From: a virus
Taxonomy: Duplodnaviria; Heunggongvirae; Uroviricota; Caudoviricetes
Length of the DNA stretch: 8,949 bases
Direction: 5' to 3' (one strand)
IMG/VR virus record: IMGVR_UViG_2713896828_000008
The stretch's first letter is position 1; the number at the start of each line of letters is the position of its first letter. The position numbers and the translations under genes were made by a program. A model generated the notes under the pieces. The model saw only the letters and a program-made list of their open reading frames with translations. It had not been told where the DNA came from and searched no databases. Below are positions 1 to 8,949 of this stretch, one piece after another.

Positions 1-192
1 TCAGGAGCATTTCTGATTAACGCCACCGTTAAGAATCCACCCTTCAACAGCTTCACGAAGGTATGATTTGGGGTGGGTTCTGACTGGCTTCGGAAATCCG
101 TGTCGTTTGGTATAGTTCCAGATTGTCTGACGTGATGAAACACCGAGCTTGTTCATCACTTCTTTCTCAGGAATCAGGCTGGTATCGGTCAT
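1..192 (-). CDS. AlpA-family (P4/CP4-57 type) helix-turn-helix regulator / excisionase-like protein, 63 aa
   Basis: Complete minus-strand ORF: ATG at 192-190, stop at 3-1, GGAG about 8 nt upstream of the ATG. Translation MTDTSLIPEKEVMNKLGVSSRQTIWNYTKRHGFPKP...EAVEGWIL has the HTH followed by the FPKP...W..E.W pattern I associate with AlpA-type regulators. Family assignment is from memory, not a search. Confidence 0.55.
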   Translation of the reverse strand: MTDTSLIPEKEVMNKLGVSSRQTIWNYTKRHGFPKPVRTHPKSYLREAVEGWILNGGVNQKCS

Positions 193-204
193 CTTAATTC
201 TCCA

Positions 205-233
205 GGCAAAAAGAAACCGCCATCAGGCGGCTT
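205..233 (-). terminator. candidate intrinsic terminator on the minus strand between the zinc-ribbon gene and the AlpA-like gene
   Basis: On the minus strand, GC-rich hairpin (plus coordinates 217-221 CCGCC pairing with 226-230 GGCGG, loop ATCA) followed by the run UUCUUUUUG (plus 207-215). It lies only about 13 nt before the AlpA-like start codon, so it may act as an attenuator rather than a full stop. Confidence 0.35.
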
Positions 234-296
234 GGTGTTCTTTCAGTTCTTCAATTCGAATATTGGTTACATTGTTTTCATATATGAATAAATAAA

Positions 297-476
297 TTAG
301 CTTTTTTCGTTGCCTTCGCGTTCTTTATTAATTTTAACAAACTCGTTTTTACCACGCTCTCCAAATGCGTCTTTAGAGTCGTTGTATCCGCAATCGCAGC
401 ACACATAATCACCAGACCATCCACGCATTGTTTTTTCTTTTGCAATATTTCCAGAACCGCATTCTGGGCAAGACAT
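297..476 (-). CDS. small zinc-ribbon protein (CxxC-x19-CxxC), 59 aa, function unknown
   Basis: Hand translation of the minus strand: ATG at 476-474, TAA at 299-297, giving [59 protein letters not shown]. Missing from the ORF track only because it is under 60 aa. CPEC...CCDC spacing fits a zinc ribbon, with a Lys/Glu-rich tail. Confidence 0.55.
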
Positions 477-488
477 ATCACGAACCTG

Positions 489-1070
489 ATGAAAAAACTG
501 GAGACGATAGGATTCGACACCAAAAAAGACCTGCTTATCTCGGTTGGCGATTTGGTCGATCGCGGTACAGAGAACGTCGAATGCCTGGAATTAATCACAT
601 TCCCCTGGTTCAGAGCTGTACGTGGAAACCATGAGCAAATGATGATTGATGGCTTATCAGAGCGCGGAAACGTCAATCACTGGATGCTTAATGGCGGTGG
701 CTGGTTCTTTAATATCGATTACGACAAAGAAATTCTGGCTAAAGATCTTGCCCATAAAGCAGATGAACTTCCGTTAATCATCGAACTGGTGAGCAAAGAT
801 AAAAAATATGTCATCTGCCACGCCGATTATCCTTGTGACGAATACGAATTTGGAAAGCCAGTTGATCATCAGCAGGTAATCTGGAACCGCGAACGAATCA
901 GCAACTCACAAGACGGGATCGTGAAAGAAATTAAAGGCGCGGACACGTTCATCTTTGGTCATACGCCAGCAGTGAAACCACTCAAGTTTGCCAACCAGAT
1001 GTATATAGATACCGGCGCAGTGTTCTGCGGAAACCTCACATTGATTCAGGTACAGGGAGAAGGCGCATGA
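489..1070 (+). CDS. Ser/Thr protein phosphatase, lambda NinI (ORF221) type, 5'-truncated and possibly inactive
   Basis: 193-aa ORF with metallophosphatase motifs GDLVDRG and RGNHE and near-identity to lambda phosphatase as I recall it. The ORF starts at a position equivalent to about residue 29 of the lambda protein, so the N-terminal GDxHG metal-binding motif is absent. In-frame stop at 405-407 and non-phosphatase sequence upstream; no Shine-Dalgarno before the ATG at 489. Stop overlaps the Q start (ATGA at 1067-1070). Confidence 0.8.
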
Positions 1071-1690
1071 GACTCGAAAGCGTAGCTAAATTTCATTCGC
1101 CAAAAAGCCCGATGATGAGCGACTCACCACGGGCCACGGCTTCTGACTCTCTTTCCGGTACTGATGTGATGGCTGCTATGGGGATGGCGCAATCACAAGC
1201 CGGATTCGGAATGGCTGCATTCTGCGGTAAGCATGAACTCAGCCAGAACGACAAACAAAAGGCTATCAACTATCTGATGCAATTTGCACACAAGGTATCG
1301 GGGAAATACCGTGGTGTGGCAAAGCTCGAAGGAAATACTAAGGCAAAGGTACTGCAAGTGCTCGCAACATTCGCTTATGCGGATTATTGCCGTAGTGCCG
1401 CGACGCCGGGCGCAAGATGCAGAGATTGCCACGGTACAGGCCGTGCGGTTGATATAGCAAAAACAGAGCAGTGGGGGAGAGTTGTTGAGAAAGAGTGCGG
1501 AAGATGCAAAGGTGTCGGCTATTCAAGAATGCCAGCAAGCGCAGCATATCGCGCTGTAACGATTCTAATCCCAAACCTTACTCAACCCACATGGTCACGC
1601 ACTGTTAAGCCGCTGTATGACGCTCTGGTGGTGCAATGCCACAAAGAAGAGTCAATCGCAGACAACATTTTGAATTCGGTCACACGTTAG
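1067..1690 (+). CDS. Q: late-gene antiterminator Q (lambda type), 207 aa
   Basis: Full-length [31 protein letters not shown]... with zinc-binding CRDCHGTG...CGRCKG, essentially the lambda Q protein as recalled. Sits immediately upstream of a PR'-like promoter and the lysis cassette. Confidence 0.93.
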
Positions 1691-1732
1691 CAGCATGATT
1701 GCCACGGATGGCAACATATTAACGGCATGATA

Positions 1733-1761
1733 TTGACTTTTTGAATAAAGTTGGGTAAATT
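1733..1761 (+). promoter_or_regulatory. PR'-like late promoter with overlapping Q-utilisation (qut) region
   Basis: -35 TTGACT at 1733-1738 and -10 TAAATT at 1756-1761 with a 17-nt spacer, followed by TTGACCCAACGATGG, which resembles the lambda PR' initial transcribed region. Position (about 45 nt after the Q stop) matches lambda organisation. Confidence 0.6.
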
Positions 1762-1796
1762 TGACCCAACGATGGATAAATGCACTCGTTAAATAA

Positions 1797-1830
1797 AGCC
1801 CTGAGTTAATAGCTCGGGGCTTTTTGCGTT
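1797..1830 (+). terminator. intrinsic terminator in the late leader (tR'-equivalent)
   Basis: Hairpin 1797-1805 AGCCCTGAG pairing with 1813-1821 CTCGGGGCT (9 bp, one G-U wobble, 7-nt loop) followed by TTTTTGCGTTTT at 1821-1830. Confidence 0.6.
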
Positions 1831-1968
1831 TTAAGCACGGCCTTTCTGAAAGCACATCAAACCAAATACCAGACAGACAAAAATAATCACCTTATCCGCT
1901 GTGGCTACGTTGTGGTGTGCTTTGCATAAAAGAAAACCAGCTCAATGGCTGGCTTCGTGAAAGCGGGT

Positions 1969-2004
1969 GGCAGGAGGTCGCGCTAACAACCTCCTGCCGT
2001 TTTG
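1969..2004 (+). other. stable stem-loop followed by a short U-run upstream of S, terminator-like
   Basis: GGCAGGAGG at 1969-1977 pairs perfectly with CCTCCTGCC at 1990-1998 (9 bp, 12-nt loop), then GTTTTG. Lies in the stretch that resumes lambda-like sequence ahead of S. Confidence 0.35.
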
Positions 2005-2102
2005 CCCGTGCATATCGGTCACGAACAAATCTGATTGCTAAACACAGTAGCCTGGATTTGTTCTATCAGTAATCGACCTTATTCCTAATTAAATAGAGCA
2101 AA

Positions 2103-2132
2103 TCCCCTTATTGGGGGTAAGACATGAAGATG
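2103..2132 (+). promoter_or_regulatory. S translational control region: sdi-type hairpin sequestering the SD plus dual start codons (Met1/Met3)
   Basis: CCCC at 2104-2107, TTATT, GGGGG at 2113-2117 forms a hairpin over the G-rich Shine-Dalgarno. S begins ATG-AAG-ATG (2124 and 2130), the lambda S107/S105 dual-start arrangement. Confidence 0.5.
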
Positions 2133-2447
2133 CCAGAAAAACATGACCTGTTAGCCGCCATTCTCGCGGCAAAGGAACAAGGCATCGGGGCAATCCTTGC
2201 GTTTGCAATGGCGTACCTTCGCGGCAGATATAATGGCGGTGCGTTTACAAAAACAGTAATCGACGCAACGATGTGCGCCATTATCGCCTGGTTCATTCGT
2301 GACCTTCTCGACTTCGCCGGACTAAGTAGCAACCTCGCTTATATAACGAGCGTGTTCATCGGCTACATCGGTACTGACTCGATTGGTTCGCTTATCAAAC
2401 GCTTCGCTGCTAAAAAAGCCGGAGTAGAAGATGGTGGAAATCAATAA
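2124..2447 (+). CDS. S: class I holin S (lambda type), 107 aa with dual start
   Basis: [39 protein letters not shown]... with three hydrophobic segments and a charged C-terminus; near-identical to lambda S as recalled. Confidence 0.95.
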
Positions 2448-2907
2448 TCAACGTAAGGCGTTCCTCGATATGCTGGCGTGGTCAGAGGGAACTGATAACG
2501 GACGACAGAAAACCAGAAATCATGGTTATGACGTCATTGTTGGCGGAGAGCTATTCACTGATTACTCCGATCACCCTCGCAAACTTGTCACGCTAAACCC
2601 AAAACTCAAATCAACAGCAGCCGGACGTTACCAGCTTCTTTCCCGTTGGTGGGATGCCTACCGCAAGCAGCTTGGACTGAAAGACTTCTCTCCGAAAAGC
2701 CAGGACGCTGTGGCATTGCAGCAGATTAAGGAGCGTGGCGCTTTGCCGATGATTGATCGTGGTGATATTCGTCAGGCAATCGACCGTTGCAGCAATATCT
2801 GGGCTTCACTGCCTGGGGCTGGTTATGGTCAGTTCGAGCATAAGGCTGACAGCCTGATTGCAAAATTCAAAGAAGCAGGGGGAACGGTCAGAGAGATTGA
2901 GGTATGA
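2431..2907 (+). CDS. R: endolysin R (lambda-type lytic transglycosylase), 158 aa
   Basis: [51 protein letters not shown]... matches lambda R as recalled. Start overlaps the S end by 17 nt, as in lambda. Confidence 0.95.
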
Positions 2908-3341
2908 GCAGAGTCACCGCGATTATCTCCGCTCTGGTTATCTGCATCATCGTCTGTCTGTCATGGGCTGTTAATCATTACCGTGATAACGCCATCGCCT
3001 ATAAAGAACAGCGCGATAAAGCCACGTACATCATCGCTGACATGCAGAAGCGTCAACGTGATGTAGCAGAACTCGACGCCAGATACACAAAGGAGCTTGC
3101 TGATGCTAACGCGACTATCGAAAGTCTCCGTGCTGATGTTTCTGCTGGGCGTAAGCGCCTGCAAGTCGCCGCCACCTGTGCAAGGTCAACGACCAGAGCC
3201 AGCGGCATGGGCGATGGAGAAAGCCCAGGACTTACAGCAGATGCTGAACTCAATTATTACCGTCTCCGAAGTGGAATCGACAAGATAACCGCGCAGGTTA
3301 ACTACCTGCAGGAATACATCAGGATGCAATGCCTGAAATGA
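2904..3341 (+). CDS. Rz: i-spanin Rz, 145 aa
   Basis: N-terminal transmembrane segment ([18 protein letters not shown]) then a charged coiled-coil-like periplasmic domain. Start overlaps the R stop (ATGA at 2904-2907). More diverged from lambda Rz than S and R are from their lambda counterparts. Confidence 0.9.
3103..3288 (+). CDS. Rz1: o-spanin Rz1, lipoprotein embedded in the +1 frame of Rz
   Basis: ATG at 3103 preceded by AAGGAG at 3090-3095. Signal peptide [20 protein letters not shown] with a lipobox (VSAC), then a proline-rich mature region [14 protein letters not shown]. The track ORF 3097..3288 starts at an upstream TTG; the ATG at 3103 is preferred. Confidence 0.8.
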
Positions 3342-3377
3342 TCGGGCGATGAAAACCAAAAAAAACAGGAGCAATAC

Positions 3378-3653
3378 ATGACTAAGCTTTATCACCGCAT
3401 CTCAACTTTTCTCTCTGGTTGCTGGGCGTTTATCACGTCTATTTCGTTCGCCATCTTTAGTTTCGGTAGCACAGCGTGCTCGCTTAGTCGGGGTCTGTGG
3501 CGTGCTATTTCAGCACTAGCGCCGAAATTTTTACCTGAAAAGGCTGTTTGGCGAATTGTAGAGCGAATGTGTAGTGAGAGCGTTCGCGAGAAGATTAACG
3601 TATTTGGACGTCATCCTCGAAATACAGGCGCATTGTGCAGTCCGTTACTGTAG
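3378..3653 (+). CDS. hypothetical small protein, 91 aa, hydrophobic Cys-containing N-terminus (possible membrane or lipoprotein), function unknown
   Basis: Strong SD (CAGGAGCAATAC-ATG). N-terminus MTKLYHRISTFLSGCWAFITSISFAIFSFGSTAC is a basic n-region plus a long hydrophobic stretch ending in STAC. No recognisable similarity to lambda Bor, which occupies this position in lambda. Confidence 0.5.
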   Translation: MTKLYHRISTFLSGCWAFITSISFAIFSFGSTACSLSRGLWRAISALAPKFLPEKAVWRIVERMCSESVREKINVFGRHPRNTGALCSPLL

Positions 3654-3745
3654 TCATTCCAAATCCCATCTACGGGTGGGCTTGATAATGAAACCGTGAT
3701 TTACATCCCCACAATCCGGGTATGTAAAAGATAGTTCAGGCGAGA

Positions 3746-3765
3746 ACAGATTTAACTAAATCTGT
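3746..3765. repeat. perfect 20-bp palindrome ACAGATTTA-AC-TAAATCTGT, candidate operator for a dimeric DNA-binding protein
   Basis: Arms 3746-3754 and 3757-3765 are exact reverse complements (9 bp each, 2-bp spacer). It sits in a 283-bp intergenic gap, and no U-tract follows on either strand, so it is not a simple terminator. Confidence 0.5.
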
Positions 3766-3936
3766 GCACCACCAGTTGCGGCAGTACAGCGAAACAACCC
3801 AAGCCAGAAAGTGGGGAAATAACACTGGCAGCCACTGAAAGATGAACCTCCAGCCTTATGGCAAAAAAGATTCTTTGTGGTGGCGGACTGATGGAAAGAC
3901 ATCCTAATCAAGCAACCACTCTACAGGGTCATAATT

Positions 3937-4305
3937 ATGAACGACAAGCAAATTGAAAAAGAAATCGCAGCCAAGGGTAAGGCGGCTCGCGTTACTCCTG
4001 AACACATTGCCAGCATAATCGCCAGCGAACATTACTTTACGGCCGCTGATGGTGCTCGCTTTGCTCATGTGCAGAGAAGCGAAACATACAGCGTAAAAAT
4101 CCCAGACCAGCCTGACGAGCTGGAGCTGCTGACATTCTGCGTTCTGGTGCTGAAGAATGGCTTTACGGTCACCGGGGAAAGCGCCTGCGCCAGCCCAGAG
4201 AACTTCGATGAAGAAATCGGGCGCAAGATTGCTCGCCAGAATGCTGTAAACAAAATCTGGATGCTCGAAGGTTACTTGCTGAAGCAGAAGCTAAGCGAAC
4301 AGTAG
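3937..4305 (+). CDS. hypothetical phage protein, 122 aa (possibly Gp49-like family, unverified)
   Basis: Clean ORF MNDKQIEKEIAAKGKAARVTPEHIASIIASEHYF...LTFCVLVLKNGFTVTGESACASPENFDEEIGRKIARQNAVNKIW. Resembles small conserved proteins found near lysis and packaging genes of enterobacterial prophages. Family name is from memory only. Confidence 0.6.
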   Translation: MNDKQIEKEIAAKGKAARVTPEHIASIIASEHYFTAADGARFAHVQRSETYSVKIPDQPDELELLTFCVLVLKNGFTVTGESACASPENFDEEIGRKIARQNAVNKIWMLEGYLLKQKLSEQ

Positions 4306-4408
4306 TTATTACAAAAGCCATTCCCTACAGAGTGGCTTTGATAATGGCTTATACCCTACACGGGATAACTTAACTGATATCCCTTTTAACGGATAAACGG
4401 AGCCAACA

Positions 4409-4651
4409 ATGGCAGAGATTATTCCCATGACTGAAGAACAGAAATTCCAGCTAGAGATTTACAAACTGGTCATGAACCAGAACGCAGCCGCAGAGGAAGC
4501 ATTTCAATTTATTGGCACTGACGAACTGAAGCTTGAGCTATTCAAAATTCACTTCCAGTCAGGCGGCGCTAATTCAGATATCACGACCCGCACAATCGAA
4601 GCGGTGCGTAAATCGAAGGAAGCGTTAGACCTGTTCACTACCGGAGCATAA
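4409..4651 (+). CDS. hypothetical protein, 80 aa, acidic and probably helical, first gene of the packaging operon
   Basis: SD ACGGAG 7 nt upstream of the ATG. Stop at 4649-4651 lies 2 nt before the terS ATG, suggesting translational coupling. Confidence 0.55.
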   Translation: MAEIIPMTEEQKFQLEIYKLVMNQNAAAEEAFQFIGTDELKLELFKIHFQSGGANSDITTRTIEAVRKSKEALDLFTTGA

Positions 4652-4653
4652 AC

Positions 4654-5094
4654 ATGGCGCGCCCAACAAAGTATCAAGAGGCGTATGCCGAACAGGCACG
4701 CAAACTGTGCTTGCTGGGCTACACCGATGCAGAGCTTGCTGATTTCTTCGAAGTCAGTGAGTCAACTATTAACAAGTGGAAGCTCGATTATCCTAAGTTT
4801 TCGGAGTCCATAAAAAAGGGTAAGGCCGTCGCTGATGCAGAAGTTAGTGACCGTCTTTATCAACGCGCTATGGGCTTCGTGGCTCCAGACATCGATATTC
4901 GTGTTATTGAAAACAGAATTGTCGAAACTCCGCTTGAGAAGTATTACCCGCCTGATACAACAGCTGCCATCTTCTGGCTTAAGAACCGACAGAAGGATAA
5001 ATGGCGCGACAAGGTTGATCACGAGCTAACAGGCAAAGACGGCGGCGCAATTCAGATTGAAACATCACCGATGAGCACTCTATTCGGAAAATGA
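4654..5094 (+). CDS. terminase small subunit (TerS), putative, 146 aa
   Basis: Position immediately upstream of terL with ATGA overlap (5091-5094), SD GGAG upstream, HTH-like N-terminus (GYTDAELADFFEVSESTINKW), size typical of P22/Sf6-type small terminases. Confidence 0.6.
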   Translation: MARPTKYQEAYAEQARKLCLLGYTDAELADFFEVSESTINKWKLDYPKFSESIKKGKAVADAEVSDRLYQRAMGFVAPDIDIRVIENRIVETPLEKYYPPDTTAAIFWLKNRQKDKWRDKVDHELTGKDGGAIQIETSPMSTLFGK

Positions 5095-6314
5095 CCTCGA
5101 TTAATCCTATCTTTGAACCGTTCATTGAGGCGCATCGCTACAAAGTCGCCAAAGGCGGTCGAGGTAGCGGTAAGTCATGGGCAATTGCTAGGCTGCTTGT
5201 TGAAGCGGCGCGTCGTCAGCCAGTGCGTATTCTCTGCGCTCGTGAACTGCAAAACAGTATCAGCGATTCGGTAATCCGGTTGCTTGAAGATACCATCGAG
5301 CGGGAAGGGTATTCGGCTGAGTTTGAAATTCAGCGTTCAATGATTCGTCATCTCGGTACGAATGCTGAATTCATGTTCTACGGCATCAAAAACAACCCGA
5401 CGAAGATTAAATCGCTCGAAGGCATTGATATCTGCTGGGTGGAAGAAGCGGAAGCGGTAACGAAGGAATCATGGGATATCCTGATACCAACCATCCGCAA
5501 GCCGTTTTCCGAAATATGGGTGAGCTTTAACCCGAAAAACATCCTCGACGATACCTATCAGCGATTCGTCGTAAATCCTCCCGATGATATTTGTCTGCTG
5601 ACAGTGAACTACACCGACAACCCGCACTTTCCTGAAGTTCTCCGTCTGGAGATGGAAGAGTGTAAACGCAGAAATCCGACACTGTATCGTCACATCTGGC
5701 TTGGTGAGCCAGTAAGCGCAAGTGATATGGCAATCATCAAACGTGAATGGCATGAAGCCGCAACCGATGCGCACAAGAAACTCGGATGGAAAGCGAAAGG
5801 CGCTGTTGTCTCTGCGCATGACCCATCAGATACAGGGCCAGATGCTAAAGGTTATGCATCGCGTCACGGTTCGGTAGTTAAGCGCATTGCTGAAGGTCTG
5901 CTGATGGACATCAACGAGGGTGCTGACTGGGCTACTTCGCTGGCGATTGAAGACGGTGCTGACCACTACCTGTGGGATGGCGATGGCGTTGGTGCCGGGC
6001 TACGCAGACAGACAACGGAAGCGTTCTCCGGCAAGAAAATCACCGCCACGATGTTCAAGGGCAGCGAATCGCCATTCGATGAAGATGCTCCGTATCAGGC
6101 CGGAGCATGGGCTGATGAAGTAGTACAGGGCGACAACGTTCGCACTATTGGCGATGTGTTCCGCAATAAGCGAGCGCAATTCTATTACGCGCTGGCTGAC
6201 AGGCTGTATCTAACCTGCAGAAGCTTGGTAAGGTTGCTGATAACGAGACTATTTCAAAACTTCAGTCCTATCGTGATGAGCTTGTTCGCAATGCTGGTCC
6301 AGATGGTCCGGTAA
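5091..6314 (+). CDS. terminase large subunit (TerL), C-terminally disrupted; ATPase domain intact
   Basis: Walker A VAKGGRGSGKS and Walker B-like DICWVEEAE. N-terminus resembles P22/Sf6-type large terminases as recalled. The last ~30 codons (about 6215-6314, ...LTCRSLVRLLITRLFQNFSPIVMSLFAMLVQMVR) look like out-of-frame low-complexity sequence and the ORF is about 60-90 aa short of typical TerL length. Likely a pseudogene or truncated allele. Confidence 0.85.
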   Translation: MTSINPIFEPFIEAHRYKVAKGGRGSGKSWAIARLLVEAARRQPVRILCARELQNSISDSVIRLLEDTIEREGYSAEFEIQRSMIRHLGTNAEFMFYGIKNNPTKIKSLEGIDICWVEEAEAVTKESWDILIPTIRKPFSEIWVSFNPKNILDDTYQRFVVNPPDDICLLTVNYTDNPHFPEVLRLEMEECKRRNPTLYRHIWLGEPVSASDMAIIKREWHEAATDAHKKLGWKAKGAVVSAHDPSDTGPDAKGYASRHGSVVKRIAEGLLMDINEGADWATSLAIEDGADHYLWDGDGVGAGLRRQTTEAFSGKKITATMFKGSESPFDEDAPYQAGAWADEVVQGDNVRTIGDVFRNKRAQFYYALADRLYLTCRSLVRLLITRLFQNFSPIVMSLFAMLVQMVR

Positions 6315-6997
6315 ATCTGGATTTGAAGCAATTAAGCGATCTGCGCAGCCAGTTCAGAATGGACGTGAAGGGTGAGCGACCAGTGTTACCAAACCGTTCC
6401 GATGCTGCCATTCAGCGCGTTTACAAGGCAATGACTGACGATATCAATGGTGCCATTGGTCAGAATCTTGGCAACGATACTCTCCGTAAATATCAGCAGG
6501 CCAATGCCGTCTACGCTGACGAAGCGGCGAAGCTAAAGAATACCAGGCTGAAGAATGTTCTCATGAAAGGCGACCTGACGCCGGAAGTTGTCAACAACAT
6601 GCTATTCAGCAAGAACAAATCGGAAATTAAGACGCTGTATAACTCAGTTGGTCGTGTTGGCAGGGCGCAAATGCGCAATGGCATCATTGGAAAGGCGATG
6701 GAGAAATCTGGCGGATCCCCTGACCAGTTCCTTCGGCAGCTTAACATCCTGCAAAACCAGACTGGCATCACATTTAAGGGGCAGGACGCTGCTTATCTGA
6801 AAGGATTGAAAAAATACCTTCAGTCCACTCAGCAGGCAGCAAAAGCGGCAGTAACAACACCAACAGGGCAGCAAACCATCCCGTTCATTATCGGGTATGG
6901 GACGGCAACGAACCCGGCGACAACTGGCGCAGCAGTAAGCTACGGACTTCTTACTCGCGCCTATGAGAGCGAACCATTCAGAAATGCAATGCTCTGA
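6200..6997 (+). pseudogene. 5'-deleted fragment of an unrelated phage protein (virion, ejection or tail-associated; speculative) joined to truncated terL
   Basis: Frame-2 reading frame is open from 6200 with no plausible start or SD (first ATG at 6359; the track start at 6323 is a TTG). Translation ...LQKLGKVADNETISKLQSYRDELVRNAGPDGPVNLDLKQLSDLRSQF...GQQTIPFIIGYGTATNPATTGAAVSYGLL... is coiled-coil, Q/A/T-rich and not terminase-like. Confidence 0.4.
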
Positions 6998-7196
6998 ATG
7001 GCAAATACCCCACGCGGATCAACAGCGTTTGAGAAAGCCTTGCAGCAGGCACAAAAGGCAATTAACGCGCTGACCCAAGGCGCTAAGTCTGATGCGTTGT
7101 CTGAATAGTTTCGAAAACACCAGGAACGTGCAAAAACCAAATATGTAGAACGCAATATTCAACAGATCTCTTTGCATAGACTCATCTCATAATTAA

Positions 7197-8949
<1,753 letters not shown>

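Follow-up and report, generated by a model that had tools for sequence, protein, structure and literature searches.

Sequence comparisons point to an 11-kb deletion scar joining a truncated terL to the end of gene 13 in a cryptic Sf6/HK620-like prophage of Escherichia coli

The stretch of DNA that we analyzed (the window, 8,949 bp) is 100% identical over its whole length to part of the chromosome of E. coli KBN10P04869 (NZ_CP026473.1), where record position 1,844,333 corresponds to window position 1; this strain has been treated among ST410 genomes (PMC10472685). The PGAP annotation of this chromosome places the phage-derived island that holds the window between sbcB and dacD. The island begins with an integrase pseudogene that contains a stop codon, followed by an HTH regulator, Eag, ninI (a metallophosphoesterase gene lacking its N-terminal part) and Q, continues with a holin, an endolysin, Rz, a Gp49-family protein, a DUF2560 protein, a 146-aa protein, and fragments of terL and gene 13, and ends with a 108-bp tailspike fragment, an IS100 element, the remainder of the tailspike gene, more IS elements, and genes for an acyltransferase and a GDSL esterase. 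The two fragments at the center of this study are labeled by PGAP as [quoted passage not shown] and [quoted passage not shown]. A search of the literature for sbcB and dacD together with a prophage locus found no account of this remnant.

The late regulatory and lysis module occupies positions 1067–3341 on the + strand, and every gene in it is annotated as intact by PGAP. This module consists of a lambda-type Q (1067–1690; 207 aa, Pfam Antiterm), a pR′-like promoter (1733–1761; TTGACT-17-TAAATT), a tR′-like terminator (1795–1823; a 13-bp hairpin followed by a T run), the holin gene S (2124–2447), the endolysin gene R (2431–2907), and Rz (2904–3341), with Rz1 embedded in Rz at about 3103–3288 and carrying the lipobox LLGVSAC. 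The DNA from ninI to Q is 97% identical to lambda, and the products of the lysis genes match those of L006, an intact prophage at argW in E. coli strain 64 (107 of 107 residues identical for the holin, 157 of 158 for the endolysin, and 138 of 145 for Rz), in agreement with a preliminary description of this DNA that had called the lysis cassette apparently intact. Upstream of Q, the early promoters are missing together with N and the nin region, and a consensus scan for sigma-70-like promoters on the + strand 5′ of Q found none. Since the early region that drives Q has been deleted, spontaneous expression of the lysis cassette is doubtful, and its expression probably needs a lambda-type Q supplied in trans. 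The window contains no tRNA genes, which implies that the lambda-type Q module found here never included the tRNA-Asn and tRNA-Thr genes seen in Sf6-type late regions. Further downstream lies an intact small terminase gene, terS (4654–5094, + strand), which matches PHROG 309 “terminase small subunit” (E = 1e-67) and whose product, the 146-aa protein of the PGAP list, is identical to that of L006 at 146 of 146 residues.

The large terminase gene that follows is intact only in its 5′ part. The terL open reading frame runs from 5091 to 6314 on the + strand (407 aa), with the TAA stop codon at 6312–6314 where the preliminary description had placed it, but only its first 375 residues (5091–6211, up to ...RAQFYYALADRLYLT) are native terminase sequence; these match Sf6 gp2 (PDB 4IDH/4IFE) with a single substitution, L221H, and similarity is lost afterwards. 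The 375 residues, out of 470 in the full-length protein, cover the ATPase domain in full and the nuclease domain in part. Residues 15–206 match Pfam Terminase_3 (E = 2.5e-41) and do not differ from Sf6 gp2, a Walker A motif (GGRGSGKS) is present, and TIGR01547 matches the fragment over profile positions 1–355 of 396. At the nucleotide level, terL is 96–98% identical to Sf6, N7, 611R6 and prophage L006, with the match ending at 6211–6214, and in a megablast search against phage genomes the same segment (5091–6211/6214) matches, again at 96–98%, the terL genes of Sf6, HK620, CUS-3, N7, Sf101 and others. We assign this terminase to the Sf6 type (PBSX family), not to the P22 type. The nuclease site of Sf6 gp2 is formed by D244, D296, N441 and D444, with metal binding controlled by K428 (PMC4678813). 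D244 and D296 are kept in the fragment, whereas K428, N441 and D444 are in the deleted part, and without these residues the fragment would be unable to work as a terminase nuclease. We class the terL remnant as a gene fragment and not as a functional member of its family. Beyond residue 375, the frame continues through gene-13 DNA (6212–6314, + strand) as an unrelated tail of 32 residues (CRSLVRLL...MVR); this tail, previously described as low-complexity sequence, is in fact gene-13 DNA read in the wrong frame.

Immediately downstream of the terL fragment is the 3′ part of a DNA transfer (ejection) gene of the Sf6 gene-13/P22 gp16 type (6207–7108, + strand; codons ~366–665). The frame in which it is read is open from 6200, directly after a TGA at 6197–6199, to a stop at 6995–6997, which gives exactly 265 codons. 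The earliest in-frame start-type codons are a TTG at 6323 and an ATG at 6359, and there is no obvious Shine-Dalgarno sequence before either. The position of this second frame, its length of 265 aa, and its want of a start codon and ribosome binding site were all as previously described, although the Q/A/T-rich composition attributed to its product was not borne out (Q 7.5%, A 9.8% and T 6.8% overall). PHROGs alone names the fragment, identifying it as PHROG 770 “DNA transfer protein” over profile positions 342–629 of 668 (E = 7.8e-101), i.e., the C-terminal ~45%, while Pfam and NCBIfam contain no family for either the 265-aa fragment or full-length Sf6 gp13. The fragment is collinear with Sf6 12653–13774 (96.0%), with L006 20001–20972 (96.7%), and with IME10 (95.9%), and megablast against phage genomes matches window positions 6207–7178 to IME10, VSe13 and others at 93–96%. 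The matching gene in these phages is annotated as encoding a DNA transfer, injection or lytic-transglycosylase protein and occupies the position of P22 gene 16. We rejected the PGAP label of “lytic transglycosylase” for the fragment, since this label reflects an N-terminal SLT domain that is present in longer homologues, among them the 797-aa protein of IME10, and that falls in the deleted part; Sf6 gp13 has no SLT domain.

The apparent end of the 265-codon frame is itself a lesion. The TGA at 6995–6997 (+ strand) is a secondary nonsense mutation, CGA to TGA, with AGA present at this codon in Sf6, and CGA both in IME10 and in strain 19-5, a swine isolate with the same junction. Full-length members of PHROG 770 have about 665–797 aa, their own start codon, and a gp20 homologue before them, whereas the sequence here has no start codon, no gp20 upstream and a premature TGA at 6995. 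We class the gene-13 remainder as a start-less pseudogene.

The point at which these two fragments meet was mapped to the base by alignment with Sf6, IME10, N7, 611R6 and the intact prophage L006. Homology to terL stops at 6211 and homology to gene 13 begins at 6207, so that the two overlap in a single retained copy of the pentamer TATCT (6207–6211, + strand), which is present at both breakpoints in the intact relatives. In Sf6 (NC_005344), the terL sequence at the breakpoint reads ...GGCTGTATCTGACATATC, with TATCT at 1536–1540, and the gene-13 sequence reads ...AGAAATATCTAACCTGCAG, with TATCT at 12653–12657; the window at the junction reads ...GGCTGTATCTAACCTGCAG. Split around the pentamer, Sf6 terL is ...CTGACAGGCTG-TATCT-GACATATCGG, Sf6 gene 13 is ...ATACAGAAA-TATCT-AACCTGCAGAAGCTT, and the window is ...CTGACAGGCTG-TATCT-AACCTGCAGAAGCTT, with no added bases and no mobile-element DNA. 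The two TATCT copies are 11,117 bp apart in Sf6 and 11,346 bp apart in L006, and in each of these genomes both parental sequences are present and collinear, with identities to the terL and gene-13 parts of 96.2% and 96.0% (Sf6) and 97.1% and 96.7% (L006). The deleted length in Sf6 coordinates is not divisible by three, which accounts for the change of frame, the 32 junk codons and the stop at 6312–6314.

Comparison with the intact relatives demonstrated that the missing interval contains the last 95 codons of terL, the portal, scaffold and coat genes, a small ORF, homologues of gp4, gp10, gp26, gp14, gp7 and gp20, and the first ~365 codons (the 5′ 55%) of gene 13. The preliminary description had proposed a deletion junction somewhere in 6190–6330, a truncated terL fused to a distal gene fragment, and the absence of the genes that normally lie between terL and the late virion genes; all of this held, and the alignment to intact relatives that it had suggested gave the exact breakpoints and the size of the deletion.

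The pentamer is present at both parental sites, in Sf6 as well as in L006, with every flanking base accounted for. By the standard junction-homology formula, microhomology of at least 5 bp would arise in a random join with a probability of 0.0046, which makes a short-homology mechanism likely; 5 bp of microhomology is suggestive of the mechanism and no proof of it. We propose that illegitimate recombination joined the TATCT at terL nucleotides 1117–1121 to the TATCT ~1.1 kb into gene 13, with one copy kept, and that about 11.1–11.3 kb of the late operon was lost in what would have been one event. The likely route would be short-homology recombination or replication slippage, and with the deleted DNA would have gone the 3′ quarter of terL, the portal, scaffold and coat genes, the head-completion and needle genes (gp4, gp10, gp26 and gp14), and the ejection genes gp7 and gp20. 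In E. coli, deletion between short direct repeats and short-homology illegitimate recombination are known from classical studies of lacI deletions and of the formation of lambda bio transducing phages. The junction described here resembles these in having a direct repeat of a few bp at both ends, one copy retained, and no filler; it differs in that the sequence shows only the product, and not the pathway (slippage or break-and-join) or the proteins that took part.

A deletion in a single event is not the only history that would produce this arrangement. Several successive nested deletions, the last of which made this junction, or an illegitimate join between two co-resident P22-like prophages, could also have brought the two fragments together, and the best matches do differ between the two halves: terL is closest to 611R6 (97.7%) and N7 (97.3%), where gene 13 is unmatched, and gene 13 is closest to L006 (96.7%) and IME10 (95.9%), the latter with a terL of the P22 type, while no undeleted ancestor at >99% was found. 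However, mosaicism is normal in the P22-like phage group, Sf6 and L006 each have the two halves together, correctly ordered and oriented and at similar identity, and the sequence on either side of the junction follows the layout of one Sf6-type late operon, running from Q to terS and terL on the left and from gene 13 into the tailspike gene, without immI, on the right. We regard these composite histories as improbable. An assembly or sequencing artefact at the junction is a general possibility with any lone assembly, and nothing specific speaks for it here; 47 complete genomes, each sequenced independently, share the junction with 100% identity, and it is also present in the slightly diverged swine isolate, so that an artefact is extremely unlikely. 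Even harder to credit is a natural arrangement of terL and a following ORF linked by programmed frameshifting. The two frames overlap by 115 nt (6200–6314), which looks superficially like recoding, but the terL frame contains no X XXY YYZ slippery heptamer within 6200–6314, each of the intact relatives has the two sequences in separate full-length genes some 11 kb from each other, and a nonsense mutation has meanwhile arisen in the downstream frame, as expected of a pseudogene. An intact phage with the arrangement seen here had been named beforehand as the finding that would speak against a deletion, and a search of 50,697 phage records for one spanning the junction returned none. Least probable of all, and in effect dismissed, is an engineered deletion or cloning scar, which the PstI (CTGCAG) and HindIII (AAGCTT) sites at 6216–6227 (CTGCAGAAGCTT, 5 bp from the breakpoint and polylinker-like) might bring to mind, but the 29-nt stretch that bears both sites, CTGCAGAAGCTTGGTAAGGTTGCTGATAA, is native to gene 13, being present in wild-type Sf6 (0 mismatches) and IME10 (1 mismatch) and encoding ...NLQKLGKVADN... 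in frame, and the strains that carry the junction are of clinical, animal and environmental origin.

The deletion between terL and gene 13 is accompanied by further lesions. A second deletion junction, at 479–481, joins the Eag region to the ninI phosphatase gene, annotated by PGAP as “metallophosphoesterase, missing N-terminus”. Our reference for this loss of ~12.7 kb was a near-complete prophage (L008, of strain FACU 2024) at the same chromosomal site: window positions 1–481 correspond to L008 21312–21792 and positions 479–1069 to L008 34482–35072, so that the two matches share 3 bp and 12,692 bp are lacking, and every phage match to ninI starts at window position 479. This deletion takes the early-left, immunity, replication and nin regions, i.e., everything from Eag to the middle of ninI. 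At the other end of the window, the first 18 codons of the tailspike gene (7273–7328, + strand) are cut off by an IS100 insertion with a 5-bp target duplication, ACTAT, at 7324–7328. The left part of this IS21-family element fills the remainder of the window (7329–8949, + strand), with istA at 7415–8437 and the start of istB (PGAP “IS21-like element IS100 family transposase” and “IS100kyp family helper ATPase IstB”), and in the longer sequence L001 the tailspike gene resumes after 1,959 bp, corresponding to IS100 (1,954 bp) plus the 5-bp duplication. Just outside the window, the integrase gene of the ST410-type genomes carries a stop at Q68.

The relative order of these events can be read from swine strain 19-5 (NZ_CP047010.1), which has both deletions and differs from window positions 1–7328 by three SNPs and no gaps. 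In this strain the integrase is intact, the codon at 6995 is CGA, and the tailspike gene is uninterrupted (...CTTCACTATGGCGCG...), with no IS100. The two deletions thus came first, and the ST410-type lineage later acquired the IS100 insertion and the stops in the integrase gene and at 6995.

Of 5,426 complete E. coli genomes, 47 (~1%; ST410-type) carry this exact junction; they come from humans, dogs, cats and the environment in several countries. Searching with the gene-13 fragment returned 48 records at an identity of at least 99%, with the terL fusion present in all nine of the rows sampled, and a next-best match of 96.7%. Our search found no genome with an undeleted, near-identical (>99%) version of the prophage, and the direct ancestor of the remnant is one that we infer. 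The near-complete prophage of strain FACU 2024, which is P22-like, does occupy the sbcB-dacD site, with an int-HTH-Eag module 98.8% identical over window positions 1–481 and full early, immunity, replication, nin, lysis, and head and tail gene sets, including full-length terL, portal, scaffold and coat genes. We rejected this prophage as the ancestor, since its Q is of another type and the DNA of its gene-13 allele is unrelated, and used it as a model of the locus.

Taken together, we consider that the window is very probably part of a cryptic Sf6/HK620-like (Lederbergvirus) E. coli prophage in which a deletion scar of ~11 kb joins a truncated terL to the end of gene 13. The phage genes are flanked by host genes, adjoin an integrase and lie at the site used by the near-complete prophage of FACU 2024, and essentials of the lytic cycle are absent, namely portal, scaffold, coat, gp4, gp10, gp26, gp14, gp7 and gp20, together with the repressor, replication and nin genes. 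From this gene content, the remnant is predicted to be unable to build heads, to package DNA or to eject it, and the two gene fragments are presumably without function. The order of the genes that remain is that of the late operon of Sf6, i.e., lysis genes, a gp49-family gene (gene 66), a DUF2560 gene (gene 67), terS, terL, and then gene 13 and the tailspike gene, with no immI region, and the DNA to either side of the junction is 96% identical to that of Sf6. Sf6 differs in that it keeps the 11,117 bp between the TATCT copies, in that its Q is of the phage-21 type and accompanied by tRNA genes, where the remnant has a lambda-type Q and none, and in the site of integration, which is argW for Sf6-type IntS prophages, whereas the remnant adjoins sbcB.

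DLP12, Rac and Qin of E. coli K-12 are cryptic (defective) lambdoid prophages, and the remnant described here is similar to them in being a lambdoid prophage that internal deletions, IS insertions and point mutations have fixed in the chromosome, and in retaining a Q-type antiterminator, a holin/endolysin/Rz cassette and terminase fragments. It differs from them in its location at sbcB-dacD, in its parent, which was a podovirus of the Sf6/HK620 type and not a siphovirus, in being confined to ~1% of the complete E. coli genomes, and in the availability of an intermediate stage of decay, strain 19-5. The remnant is a case of ordinary prophage decay, with no departure from what is known of this process, and both fragments are already pseudogenes in RefSeq.

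An alternative view of the retained genes is that Q, pR′, the lysis cassette, TerS, and a TerL fragment proficient as an ATPase and dead as a nuclease may have been kept as a block against other phages. By one route, Q from a superinfecting lambdoid phage would trigger premature lysis through the resident cassette; by another, TerS and the truncated TerL would poison the packaging motor of Sf6-like phages. The sole hint of such a role is the placement of SNPs relative to strain 19-5, with three of three falling in the two pseudogene fragments and none in the ~5 kb of ninI, Q, lysis genes and terS (post hoc p ~0.02, n = 3), and we consider selection for an anti-phage function to have only a slight chance of being correct.

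As an ordinarily decayed prophage, the remnant matters little beyond annotation: for annotators and prophage predictors, the ST410-type locus would be best recorded as a dead Sf6-like remnant and not as an inducible phage. The junction sequence is a simple lineage marker for the ~1% of complete E. coli genomes that carry it, and strain 19-5 offers a relative order for the steps of decay, with two microhomology deletions ahead of the IS100 insertion and the nonsense mutations. In addition, a lambdoid phage that is co-resident or enters the cell might in principle switch on the lambda-type, Q-dependent lysis cassette in trans, an effect that would not be new in kind.

Our comparison of the remnant with a near-complete P22-like prophage in E. 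coli strain FACU 2024 (L008/L009; NZ_CP147009.1, about 3,518,000-3,557,600), which occupies the same sbcB-dacD intergenic site, identified a second deletion junction at window positions 479-481 (context 297-1070), with an overlap of 3 bp. At this junction the Eag gene region abuts a ninI phosphatase gene that lacks about 30 N-terminal codons, and 12,692 bp present in the FACU 2024 prophage are absent, i.e., the early-left operon, the repressor/cro region, the replication genes and the nin region. The presence of a near-complete prophage between sbcB and dacD shows that integrases of this type do use this locus as an attachment site. In the FACU 2024 prophage itself, annotation marks the gp16-type gene as a pseudogene, and an IS2 element adjoins the tailspike gene.

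The remnant retains a lambda-type late regulatory module (window 1067-2447), comprising a Q gene (product of 207 aa), a pR'-like promoter (TTGACT/TAAATT) and a tR'-like hairpin, and this module adjoins a packaging module of the Sf6 type. Phage Sf6 encodes another type of Q together with tRNA-Asn/Thr genes, as do the FACU 2024 prophage and the intact argW prophage of E. coli strain 64 (L006), whereas the Q-holin interval of the remnant contains no tRNA genes. In combining a lambda-type Q module with an Sf6-type packaging module, the remnant shows the mosaicism typical of lambdoid phages. We also identified a 91-aa ORF (window 3378-3653), located between Rz and the gene for the Gp49-family protein, that PGAP did not annotate in NZ_CP026473.1, the ST410-type chromosome carrying the window. 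This ORF aligns from end to end with phrog_34701, a family of unknown function (E=7e-57).

Swine strain 19-5 and the window differ at only three positions over 7,328 bp (5752, 6995 and 7102), and polarisation against Sf6 and IME10 indicates that all three changes are derived in the window's lineage. The change in the terL fragment is missense (L221H), and the other two, one nonsense and one synonymous, are in the gene-13 fragment. None of the three falls within the ninI-Q-lysis-terS stretch (post hoc p ~0.02), a number of changes too small to infer selection. The tailspike gene is interrupted after codon 18 by IS100, a 1,954-bp element of the IS21 family (window 7324-8949; 22239-24197 in L001, the ST410-type locus) flanked by a 5-bp target duplication, ACTAT; strain 19-5 does not contain IS100, and its 726-aa tailspike ORF is uninterrupted. 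The ST410-type integrase gene, which lies immediately to the left of the window (L001 13752-14930), carries a stop at Q68 (CAA to TAA), whereas that of strain 19-5 is intact, so in the window's lineage the remnant is also locked in place.

Past IS100, to the right of the window, the rest of the island (L001 24196-32095) contains the remainder of the tailspike gene, an acyltransferase gene and a GDSL/SGNH esterase gene, with IS421, IS66 and IS3 scattered among them. The acyltransferase and esterase genes are candidate O-antigen-modifying conversion genes, and they may be the reason that the island has persisted.
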